Origin: Escherichia coli
Lineage (GTDB): Bacteria; Pseudomonadota; Gammaproteobacteria; Enterobacterales; Enterobacteriaceae
Strand: one strand, 5' to 3'
Assembly: GCF_003018255.1 (NCBI RefSeq)
Contig: NZ_CP027440.1
Length of the DNA: 64,000 nucleotides
Of this stretch, positions 6,001-9,000 are shown in pieces. Every line of letters starts with the position of its first letter. The first letter of the stretch is position 1. Made by a program: the position numbers.

Positions 6001-9000
6001 TATCCCATTTTAGAATCAGGCTGCGTTTCTGCAGCCTCTCTCATCACCCAAATGTCTAATCAGGCTATTATTGATTATCCATGTTTCCTGTATGTTTGCG
6101 GCATGCTCCCAATAACTTTCCCGAAGATAAACACCCGGTTCATCTCGTCTTTCTCGATTGGGTCCCACGGTGAGTAGCTCTTGTTATCAGAGATAACCAG
6201 CAGTTTATCCTTCATCATTTGCAGGCGCTTAACATGGGCTGTGTCGTCATACAGAAACGCATAGATACCATCACCGTCGAAAGATTTAACAGTGATATCA
6301 ACGAACAGAAGATCACCTGGTTCGATCGTTCCTGACATGCTGTCACCGCGTACGTTAATGATGCGGATATTTTCTGCCTTCCTGCCATCGAACATGTGAC
6401 GAGCATCGTCAAACGAGTACTCAACCGAGCGTAGAACTTCTACAAACTCACGGTTGATGACTCCCGGCCCGGCACTCACTTCTATATCAAGAACGTCAAT
6501 CTTGAAGTATTTGGGATGGTTGGCAGCAGGCTTCCCTGATTGTTGACCGTCATTTCTCATCGGGCCTATGCCTGATGAGAGCCACTCTGTTCGAACACCC
6601 AATGCATTAGCTATTTCAACAATTTTTGTTGAGCCGCGTGCGTTGCCGCTTGTCAGTCTCCAGATTGTGGGTTGAGCTACGCCAGACGCCTTTGCAAGAG
6701 CGCCTTGAGACATTCCAGATTGTTCCATCGCTAGGTTTAAGCGATCAGCAAGAGTTTCTTTTTTCATAAGTTTTAATTTATACGCTTGCGTATTGATGGT
6801 CAAAACACGTTTTGCTATTGATTGGGTTAATACGCATTGCTATTATCCATTCATTGTAATACCAATAGGAATTGATAATGACAAATCAAACCATTCAACT
6901 CGCAATCAGTATTACAGGTAGCCAAAAACGACTGGCAGATCTATGCGGTGTAGCCCAGCCCACTGTTTGGCGTTGGCTACACGGTGGGGGAATTGATGCC
7001 CGCTATGTAATGAAAATTGTCTCAGCCACTGGTGGAAAGATTAAACCAGCAGATATTCGTCCCGACCTTGCACCATTGTTTAACGCGAGTAATTCTGCCG
7101 CCTAAACTGCGGCGTTAACTGATAAGGCAATGATTATGCAACCACTTACATACCAACAGACTAGCGGATTTAGCCCGACTGCGGTGATAAATCGTTCTCA
7201 AATAAAACAGGTGCCAGGCCACGAAAAAATCCGTGATGCCGTTCGCGCCTGGTCGGCTGCAGATAATCAGGATGTTGTTGCCGCACTCATTGTGAATGAG
7301 TATCGGGAGCAGGGCGGCGGCACCATCGATTTCCCTGATGATGTCAGCCGTGCACGCCAGAAGCTGTTCCGCTTCCTCGATAACAAATTCGATTCTGAAA
7401 AATACCGAAATAACGTGCGTGAACTGACCCCGGCAATTCTGGCGGTACTACCGCTGGAATATCGCGGCCACCTGGTTGAGCAGGATAGCTTCATGGCTCG
7501 GCTGGCTGAAATGGAAAAGGAACTCTGTGAGGCAAAGCAGGCGGTCATTCTCAACGCACCACGCCACCAGAAACTGAAGGAGATGAGTGAAGGCATTGTG
7601 TCGATGTTTCGAGTGGACCCGGATCTGGCTGGTCCATTGATGGCGATGGTCACCACCATGCTGGGGGCAATATGACAGGTTCAAAAATGGCGAAAGTCGG
7701 TCTGCGGGAACAGAACCGACTTTCAGGTGCAAATCGTAACACACTCATTGCGGGAGGAATTATGGCAAACACTGCTGAGATATTCAATTTTCCAGTGCCG
7801 GATGCGGCACAAAAGGAGCCGCGCGTGGCAGATCTCGATGATGGTTATACGCGCATTGCAAATGAGTTGCTGGAAGCTGTGATGCTGGCCGGATTAACAC
7901 AGCACCAGCTTCTGGTCTTCCTGGCTGTCATGCGCAAAACATATGGCTTTAATAAAAAACTGGATTGGGTGAGCAACGAGCAACTGTCCGGATTGACCGG
8001 GATATTACCGCACAAGTGTTCTGCTGCAAAAAGTGTTCTGGTAAAGCGTGGGATTTTGATTCAGAGCGGGCGGAATATCGGTATTAATAATGTGGTCAGT
8101 GAATGGTCAACATTACCCGAATCAGGTAAGAAAAATAAAGTTTACCTGAAAGAGGTAAATTTACCTGAATCAGGTAAGAAAAGTTTACCCAAATCAGGTA
8201 AAGGCGTTTACCCGAATCAGGTAAACACAAAAGACAAACTAACAAAAGACAATATAAAACCTTTTTCGTCCGAGAATTCTGGCGAATCCTCTGACCAACC
8301 AGAAAACGATCTTCCTGTGGTGAAACCAGATGCTGCAATTCAGAGCGGCAGCAAGTGGGGGACAGCAGAAGACCTGACCGCCGCAGAGTGGATGTTTGAC
8401 ATGGTGAAGACCATCGCACCATCAGCCAGAAAACCGAATTTTGCAGGGTGGGCTAACGATATCCGCCTGATGCGTGAACGTGACGGACGTAACCACCGCG
8501 ACATGTGCGTGCTTTTCCGCTGGGCATGCCAGGACAACTTCTGGTCCGGTAACGTGCTAAGTCCGGCCAAACTCCGCGACAAGTGGACCCAACTCGAAAT
8601 CAACCGTAACAAGCAACAGGCAGGCATGATAGCCAGCAAACCAAAACTCGACCTGACAAACACTGACTGGATTTACGGGGTGGATTTATGAAAAACATCG
8701 CCGCACAGATGGTTAACTTTGACCGTGAGCAGATGCGCCGGATCGCCAACAACATGCCGGAACAGTACGACGAAAAGCCGCAGGTACAACAGGTAGCGCA
8801 GATCATCAATGGTGTGTTCAGCCAGTTACTGGCAACTTTCCCGGCGAGCCTGGCTAACCGTGACCAGAATGAACTGAACGAAATCCGCCGCCAGTGGGTG
8901 CTGGCTTTCCGGGAAAACGGGATCACCACAATGGAACAGGTTAACGCTGGAATGCGCGTAGCCCGTCGGCAGAATCGACCATTCCTGCCATCACCCGGGC

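Follow-up and report, generated by a model that had tools for sequence, protein, structure and literature searches.

A lambda-type O/ori/P replication module that very probably carries a different origin-specificity cassette in a DLP12-related lambdoid prophage of Escherichia coli

Introduction

The O protein of phage lambda is the reference for the locus described here. It is composed of an N-terminal DNA-binding domain and a C-terminal domain that binds P, and its action at the origin is described by the O-some model (PMC6022878). O-type proteins differ from one another by their origin specificity, as has been stated for P22, L and lambda (PMC8022706), and the modularity of O was established in 1978 by means of lambda-phi80 and lambda-82 hybrids, according to the account of that work given where it is cited (PMC6022878). 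The present analysis deals with an O-type initiator gene, the repeats (iterons) contained in it and the adjoining P gene, located at positions 7762-9389 of a 64,000-nucleotide stretch of E. coli contig NZ_CP027440.1 (assembly GCF_003018255.1). This whole stretch is called the window.

The feature is very probably a lambda-type O/ori/P replication module of a DLP12-related E. coli lambdoid prophage, in which the cassette determining origin specificity differs from that of lambda. As a whole it is an ordinary lambdoid replication module that has already been annotated, and the modular design of O is known. Only the iteron sequence of the type found here, named TTACC after its arms, appears to be undescribed, the type having been set apart without a comparison with phage 82.

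The mosaic O gene

The O gene is a 309-codon open reading frame (ORF) on the + strand that encodes an O-type replication initiator. The Phage_rep_O family (Pfam PF04492) matches residues 21-115 with its full profile (E 2.1e-33, 115 bits against a cut-off of 28.7). The original prediction had described a hybrid initiator, with an N-terminal half different from that of lambda, a lambda-identical C-terminal half and a lambda-type P. The N-terminal half does differ, since residues 1-115 are 47.8% identical to lambda O. The C-terminal half is of the lambda type but falls short of full identity (97.2% over residues 168-309, 138 of 142 residues). The P ORF, of 233 codons, overlaps the O stop codon (ATGA), matches Phage_lambda_P with an E value of 8.2e-62 and shares 228 of its 233 residues (98%) with lambda P, as expected.

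At the nucleotide level (blastn), the window resembles lambda over 8225-9661 (94.6%) and in a single 23-bp patch, and Klebsiella phage GZ7 over 7753-8254 (79.9%), and neither of them elsewhere. Since the lambda homology begins at 8225 and the GZ7 homology stops at 8254, the junction between both parts lies in the shared A-rich patch of about 30 bp that follows the last iteron. These alignments show a mosaic O gene, in which a non-lambda N-terminal domain (N-domain) and its iterons are followed by an A-rich tract and by a lambda-type C-terminus and P. The specificity cassette, composed of the N-domain and the iterons, extends from 7753 to about 8224. Because the lambda-like tract is 94.6% identical, 8225-9661 is best regarded as a diverged lambda-type allele, not as lambda's own sequence. 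A lambda-type C-terminus with P has been found behind at least four N-domain types.

The GenBank record of lambda contains misc_recomb features (NC_001416, 39157/39158 and 39165/39166; positions 1972-1981 of our lambda locus L001) that coincide with the switch of the window to lambda-like sequence. They are possibly the crossover points of classical hybrids; being unlabelled, they were not used as evidence.

The iterons and the A-rich tract

Inside O there are five palindromic iterons of 17 bp with the consensus TTACCY-GAATC-AGGTAA, whose start-to-start spacing is 29, 19, 24 and 23 bp (Table 1). Four to five copies at 8114-8224 had been announced: their location within the gene stands, their number is exactly five and the array starts at 8113 instead of 8114. 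Iterons 1 and 5 are identical in sequence. When the whole 64 kb were searched with the iteron pattern, allowing up to three mismatches, eight strand-matches were obtained, all of them in the array; the chance expectation is 0.11, and eight matches were reached in none of 100 shuffled sequences.

The A-rich stretch that had been noted after the iterons is present at 8225-8262. The segment 8220-8259 has a GC content of 0.25 and an AT skew of +0.73. This tract is partly identical to the A-rich tract of lambda, and the same A-rich patch is found in P22, mEp213, Eho49 and lambda. The general layout is a shared one as well: a 6+5+6 palindrome with (x, 24, 23) bp spacing is common to the window, lambda, P22, ES18, mEp213 and 933W. 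The palindromic iterons stand just after the N-domain, in at least the number expected of an intragenic origin of this family (three to four units of about 17-19 bp at distances of about 20-24 bp) and in an arrangement that parallels lambda, P22 and phi80, among others. As in the lambda O family, an A/T-rich region lies directly 3' of the last iteron.

Co-variation of the iterons with the N-terminal domain

The iterons had been presumed to co-vary with the N-terminus of O, and this presumption agrees with two collections, namely 80 of 80 IMG/VR loci and 17 typed phages. The IMG/VR loci were obtained by scanning the database with an alignment of the N-domain, to which they show 81-100% identity. 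In all 80, TTACC..GGTAA repeats begin at position 352 or 381 of the gene, and almost all of the loci have the 29/19/24/23 layout. These iterons precede two main kinds of C-terminal domain and several C-terminal tails: at least 53 loci have a lambda-type C-terminus with P, 19 have a C-terminus of the GZ7 type with a DnaC-like loader, and two have a third kind of C-terminal tail and a distant P-like gene. In 53 related loci the lambda-type O C-terminus is always followed by P.

The two loci with the third kind of tail (L076 and L078) possess the GZ7-type middle domain and different last ~25 residues (...HWNSPDAWRDFL). The next gene, in place of the DnaC-like loader, is the distant P-like one (34% identity). 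This suggests that the extreme C-terminal tail of O, which has a conserved Trp, tracks the loader, which agrees with the essential role reported for the last five residues of lambda O (PMC6022878). Truncated O copies that keep the iterons were also seen, of 139, 201, 162 and 235 amino acids in loci L030, L041, L065 and L073, respectively; these loci are probably decaying prophages.

Iteron number is variable too. Locus L083 (IMGVR_UViG_2910596823_000013) has nine iterons at O gene positions 352-560, spaced 29, 19, 29, 19, 29, 19, 24 and 23 bp, and in it a 48-bp unit of two iterons is triplicated. Therefore, the number of iterons in the TTACC type varies by tandem duplication, as in the six-iteron Shiga toxin (Stx) phages.

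The second collection comprises the O genes of 18 phages, 17 of which could be typed (loci L001-L012 and L097-L104). Nine N-domain types carry nine different iteron arms: TCCCTC in lambda, 21, 933W and ES18; TTACCY in the window and GZ7; TTTACC in P22; TTAGCG in SEN34 and Eho49; TTAGCY in mEp213, Yersinia 06.16-1, PSTCR7lys and phiES15; GTCACC in PhiR12 and Sf101; GTCTCG in CurroJimenez; TTCCCG in phi80, HK225 and Meifeng; and TCCCCG in SPN3UB. The six pairs with at least 80% N-domain identity all share their arms, five of them exactly and one at five of six positions, and four of these six pairs differ in the helicase or loader partner. On the other hand, four different iterons are found in the window, lambda, PhiR12 and SEN34, in spite of the lambda-type C-terminus and P common to them.

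In Mantel tests, arm identity was correlated with the identity of the recognition helix (rho 0.33, 5 of 2000 permutations), with that of the whole N-domain (rho 0.24, 56 of 2000) and with possession of the same partner (rho 0.15, 132 of 2000). Taken together, the sequence comparisons support that the iteron arms follow the N-domain and its predicted recognition helix and not the C-terminus or the loader. The iterons and the N-terminus are not both those of lambda.

The DNA-binding domain and its predicted recognition helix

The AlphaFold2 model of O residues 1-120 has a mean predicted local distance difference test (pLDDT) score of 78.6, with values above 90 over most of residues 40-110. It contains helices at 28-42, 47-59, 72-79 and 83-95 and a beta-hairpin with strands 99-102 and 105-108, so that the modelled fold is a winged helix-turn-helix. 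A Foldseek search against the PDB returned only winged-helix DNA-binding domains (CRP, FNR, MarR), all of them weak matches, and a sequence search of the PDB found no solved relative of O. The homologue search carried out with the 120-residue N-domain gave mostly fragments of the same type and served only to deepen the alignment used for structure prediction.

In the table of 18 phages, the residues at the beginning of the predicted recognition helix group in the same way as the iteron arms. P[HT]KCS accompanies TTACC, PVKRCN accompanies TCCCTC and PRQKVN accompanies GTCACC; five phages, the N-domains of which are down to 39% identical, combine TTAGC with HHTH or HLTH. The pairs of helix and arm are LPHKCS-TTACCY, APTKCS-TTTACC, HHTH-TTAGC, PVKRCN-TCCCTC, PRQKVN-GTCACC and SDTHVS-TTCCCG. 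They are suggestive of a recognition code for the winged helices of the O family, with few lineages behind it.

Proposed replication mechanism

By homology with lambda, O would bind to every iteron as a dimer, each monomer contacting one half-site by means of its recognition helix (residues 83-95). The bound and bent iteron array would form an O-some, which would destabilise the A-rich tract next to it. The P-DnaB complex would be recruited by the lambda-type C-terminus of O, and replication would start once host chaperones had released DnaB. As expected from lambda, firing would be modulated by pR transcription running rightward across the origin and by the oop-like antisense RNA just upstream.

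The deposited genome of phage Turner has an O gene 100% identical to that of the window. In the phage records PhiR, 4A7, 1W, 3W and Perceval the identity is 97-98.5%, and several of these records give E. coli C or K-12 MG1655 as the host. This identity in phage Turner and the near-identity in phage records with E. coli hosts provide evidence for a functional O allele.

Evaluation of the mosaic, lambda-type module and of alternative explanations

Several points weigh against the reading proposed here. The binding of O to the iterons and the firing of the origin are deduced from co-variation and conservation. The Mantel tests gave only modest correlations, in a set of 17 phages that lack phylogenetic independence. 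Matches in the fold search were weak, the best having an E value of 5.8e-3 (template modelling score ~0.47). Since the iterons are located directly 3' of the coding sequence of the N-domain, physical linkage alone could lead to their co-inheritance. Furthermore, the five repeats need not all be equivalent, to judge from the iterons of Stx phages: in origins of this kind with six iterons, only four were bound efficiently in vitro (PMC7466680). For this reason the extra iteron 1 may be auxiliary, although its sequence is that of iteron 5.

Because linkage alone could produce co-inheritance, selection on the DNA itself was tested in 63 distinct sequences of the TTACC type. The arms of the iterons are 92% invariant, the iteron centres 51% and the spacers between iterons 30%; in the N-domain, 81% of codon positions 1+2 and 22% of positions 3 are invariant. 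The iterons lie in frames 0, 2, 0, 0 and 2 and encode peptides of the LPESGK type or of the VYLKEVN type. Since they sit in two frames and their arms are more conserved than the non-synonymous codon positions, the arms are under purifying selection at the DNA level, a conservation that goes beyond linkage. The same data bear on the idea that the repeats are a by-product of a repetitive linker peptide, with selection acting on a protein repeat and not on DNA sites. The repeats are indeed within coding sequence, in the linker between the two domains of O, and three of them code for peptides that resemble one another (LPESGK, LPESGK and LPKSGK). However, the other two copies, read in another frame, give VYLKEVN and VYPNQVN, every unit is an inverted repeat, a symmetry that is meaningless at the protein level, and the arms surpass in invariance even codon positions 1+2 of a folded domain; architecture and spacing also match the experimentally defined O-binding sites of lambda. 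A linker-peptide origin of the repeats is hardly tenable. Nor is recombination easily dispensed with. Unequal rates of divergence from a lambda-like ancestor, rapid in the N-terminal half of a non-recombinant gene and slow in its C-terminal half, would account for the homology still recognisable between the N-domain and that of lambda (48%) and for the single layout found in all O proteins, but not for the jump in nucleotide similarity to lambda, which rises from a lone 23-bp patch to 94.6% precisely at 8225. The cassette is also found, at about 80% nucleotide identity, before an unrelated C-terminus (22%) and a DnaC-like loader in phages of the GZ7 type, and the multiple N-types that precede the lambda-type C-terminus and P speak against unequal divergence as well, which makes it very improbable.

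The third alternative concerns activity. The module could be intact but silent, a relic in a cryptic prophage like DLP12 of K-12, with an origin that never fires in its host. The presence of the DLP12-type cargo genes emrE, ybcK, ybcL and ybcM would fit, given that K-12 DLP12 is defective, and so would the truncated O genes of the four related loci mentioned above. On the other hand, the ORFs of O, P, cI, cro, int, xis, terminase and portal are all open and the O gene is that of phage Turner without a single difference. A silent relic is unlikely; it would affect the activity of the module in this strain only and would leave its identity unchanged. The preferred reading remains that of a lambda-type O/ori/P module with a different specificity cassette.

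The start of O and a putative oop-like antisense RNA

The Prokaryotic Genome Annotation Pipeline (PGAP) starts O at an upstream ATG (7672), giving a protein of 339 amino acids that is ATGA-coupled to the preceding YdaT-like gene. The O N-termini of lambda, GZ7, SEN34 and phi80 align at the ATG at 7762, ahead of which there is a ribosome-binding site, GGAGG, at 7753-7757. Because of this homology and of the GGAGG site, 7762 is supported as the true start of O in preference to 7672. Protein databases hold both forms, and the 30 extra codons of the PGAP form overlap the region of the oop-like RNA described below.

A pO-like promoter overlaps the O start codon on the opposite strand (Table 1). This block is conserved in lambda, phi80, SEN34 and GZ7 at an equal position relative to the O start, and the RNA next to it in phi80 is annotated as 'M3 RNA, homolog of lambda oop'. 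By analogy, the promoter would drive an oop-like antisense RNA in the window. The hairpin of this putative RNA folds with -24.6 kcal/mol (z = -3.4), a value equalled in none of 200 shuffled sequences. An Rfam scan of 5000-12000, with E values up to 0.1, gave no family, the oop-like RNA included, and a simple terminator scan found no terminator at all, missing the hairpin, the T-run of which is interrupted.

Table 1. Positions in the window of the features of the O/ori/P region
Feature	Position	Strand	Basis
Putative oop-like antisense RNA, ~70 nt; terminator hairpin 7692-7724, then UUUCGCCAUUUUUG	7682-7752	-	RNA fold, position
pO-like promoter, TTGAAT-17-CATAAT with upstream TG; overlaps O start codon	7759-7787	-	Promoter scan
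O initiator gene, 309 amino acids	7762-8691	+	ORF, Pfam, aligned N-termini of homologues
Coding region of the predicted winged-helix DNA-binding domain, residues 21-115, non-lambda type	7822-8106	+	Pfam PF04492, AlphaFold2 model
Predicted recognition helix, residues 83-95, LPHKCSAAKSVLV	8008-8046	+	Model; signature co-varies with iteron arm in 17 typed phages
Iteron 1, TTACCCGAATCAGGTAA, O frame 0	8113-8129		Repeat and pattern search
Iteron 2, TTACCTGAAAGAGGTAA, frame 2	8142-8158		Repeat and pattern search
Iteron 3, TTACCTGAATCAGGTAA, perfect palindrome, frame 0	8161-8177		Repeat and pattern search
Iteron 4, TTACCCAAATCAGGTAA, frame 0	8185-8201		Repeat and pattern search
Iteron 5, TTACCCGAATCAGGTAA, frame 2	8208-8224		Repeat and pattern search
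A-rich region with ACAAAAGACAA twice; putative DNA-unwinding element and mosaic junction	8225-8262		Composition, repeat family, homology ends
Lambda-type C-terminal part of O, residues 168-309; putative P-interaction domain	8263-8691	+	Identity to lambda O
Lambda-type P gene, DnaB helicase loader	8688-9389	+	Pfam Phage_lambda_P; identity to lambda P
ren-like gene, end of the lambda-homologous tract	9386-9688	+	Lambda homology reaches 9661

Prophage context

The window is identical (100%) to stretches of several E. coli chromosomes, for instance that of strain 0-4. The gene order of its first 25 kb is int-xis-exo-bet-gam-kil ... Ser/Thr kinase-cI-cro(YdaS-like)-YdaT-like-O-P-ren, followed after ren by emrE-ylcJ-ybcK-ybcL-ybcM-ybcN-ninE-ybcO-rusA-ylcG-quuD-porin-lysis-nohD-terminase-portal. 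The prophage is an apparently complete relative of DLP12, the cryptic prophage of K-12. No Pfam match was obtained for the ren-like ORF. Between ren and ybcN, at 9702-13692 (+), are located emrE, ylcJ, ybcK (a serine recombinase), ybcL and ybcM, a placement that we take to be that of DLP12 in K-12; O, P and the structural genes are still present in the window.

In the position of cII, at 7130-7675 (+), there is a gene for a 181-residue protein of the YdaT family (Pfam YdaT_toxin, E 2.6e-29); the phi80 protein called 'CII' has 180 residues. The gene in the position of cro is YdaS-like (PF15943). The YdaT-family and YdaS-like genes therefore indicate an immunity/decision module of the phi80/Rac type and not of the lambda type. 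Next to cI, at 4493-5994 (-), a Ser/Thr protein kinase of 348 residues is encoded (Pfam Pkinase, E 1e-46), preceded by an overlapping ORF of 153 residues without a family match. The kinase, the position of which presumably corresponds to that of the stk kinase of 933W, matches the PADLOC models mad6 (E 8e-49) and PD-T4-6 (E 1.5e-36) and is probably a prophage-encoded anti-phage defence or exclusion gene.

Prevalence and significance of the TTACC type

Besides phage Turner, the O gene is present with 96.7-98.5% identity in 14 other phage records (PhiR series, 4A7, Lambda_4C10, 1W, 3W, Perceval and IdasGreatGrand). The iteron array was found in 21 phage records, with only a coding sequence annotation listed under the match in each. 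The half of the gene containing the N-domain and the iterons occurs, at a coverage of at least 80%, in 2295 of 5426 complete E. coli genomes (~42%), and at least 1000 contigs carry the exact O protein, annotated as 'Replication protein O'. Among the publications searched, none was found to print the iteron sequence TTACCY-GAATC-AGGTAA. Phage 82 probably has five iterons too, and the nin, rusA and Q region of the prophage is of the DLP12 type; it is therefore plausible that the type is that of phage 82. It is possible, though doubtful, that the TTACCY-GAATC-AGGTAA/'LPHKCS' cassette is an uncharacterised specificity type, distinct from that of phage 82 and yet among the commonest in E. coli prophages. 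If so, the set of helix-arm pairs would be the start of a usable recognition code. Origin specificity could then be predicted from the sequence alone, and with it the replication cross-talk or exclusion to be expected among lambdoid prophages that share a host.

The analysis places the putative origin of a very common prophage family at 8113-8262, inside a gene that PGAP calls only 'replication protein'. The specificity of this family would differ from that of lambda despite the lambda-like C-terminus of O and the lambda-like P. Lambda tools and lambda-type prophages should not cross-activate an origin of the TTACC type through O; they could, however, compete for P, or share it, with a prophage of the TTACC type. 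With the iteron consensus, origins can be annotated in thousands of prophages of E. coli and Klebsiella. Otherwise the locus is a natural example of the textbook modular design of O, with little importance beyond annotation.

Comparison with known phage systems

The module resembles that of lambda in gene order (cII-like, O, P, ren), in the position of the origin inside O and in the 6+5+6 palindromic iterons, the last three of which are spaced 24 and 23 bp and followed by ACACAAAAGACA and an A-rich tract. It differs in the iteron arm, which is TCCCTC in lambda (TCCCTC-AAAAC-GAGGGA) and TTACCY in the window, and in the N-domain, which is 48% identical. Lambda has four iterons and the window five, the extra one being promoter-proximal and due to a 30-bp insertion in the window. 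In addition, the gene in the cII position encodes a YdaT-family protein, as in phi80, and not lambda cII. The window lies outside the lambda specificity type, which includes phages 21, 434, 933W and ES18 and is characterised by N-domains at least ~88% identical to that of lambda O. Phage 21, which had been proposed as a comparator, is uninformative, its O and iterons being simply those of lambda. 933W and Stx2 phage I share with the window a lambda-type C-terminus with P and supernumerary iterons that result from tandem duplication of the iteron unit, but they have the lambda N-domain (98%) and six copies of the lambda iteron sequence.

Phage phi80, also named for comparison by the original prediction, did prove to have an O N-domain and iterons of another type, with TTCCCG-AAAAC-GGGAA iterons and an N-domain 39% identical to that of the window. 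Another gene that was considered, ydaU of the K-12 Rac prophage, is annotated as DUF1376; it is a different gene and not a copy of this O allele.

Among the classical phages, the nearest relative of the N-domain is P22 gp18, the product of gene 18 of this Salmonella phage (59% identity). The P22 iteron, TTTACC-AGATC-GGTAAA, shows the same TTACC/GGTAA core, and a ACAAAAGACAAT repeat follows the array in both cases. The arm of P22 is offset by 1 bp from the dyad, which can equally be read as a difference at two of six arm positions. P22 has four iterons, an unrelated C-terminus (17%) and a DnaB-type helicase, gp12, as partner. By its arm and by its N-domain (59%), the window does not belong to the gene-18 specificity type of P22. 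Treating the iterons of P22 and of the window as one half-site with a spacer longer by 2 bp is disfavoured, since all types keep the 6+5+6 structure and the spacing of the array.

The same specificity cassette is found in the GZ7-type O of Klebsiella phages (also in KO-TP1, ST11-VIM1phi8.2 and RCIP0034), with an N-domain 83% identical and five TTACC..GGTAA iterons in the same 29/19/24/23 layout. Its C-terminal domain, in contrast, shows no relationship to that of the window (22% identity), and the next gene encodes a DnaC-like loader and not P. A parallel to the whole construction is provided by the lambda-phi80 and lambda-82 hybrids which, as far as they are described in the citing article, join a type-specific N-terminal part to a heterologous, P-compatible C-terminal part by means of a crossover located in O beyond the iterons. 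Laboratory selection gave rise to those hybrids, whereas the allele of the window is natural and very common.

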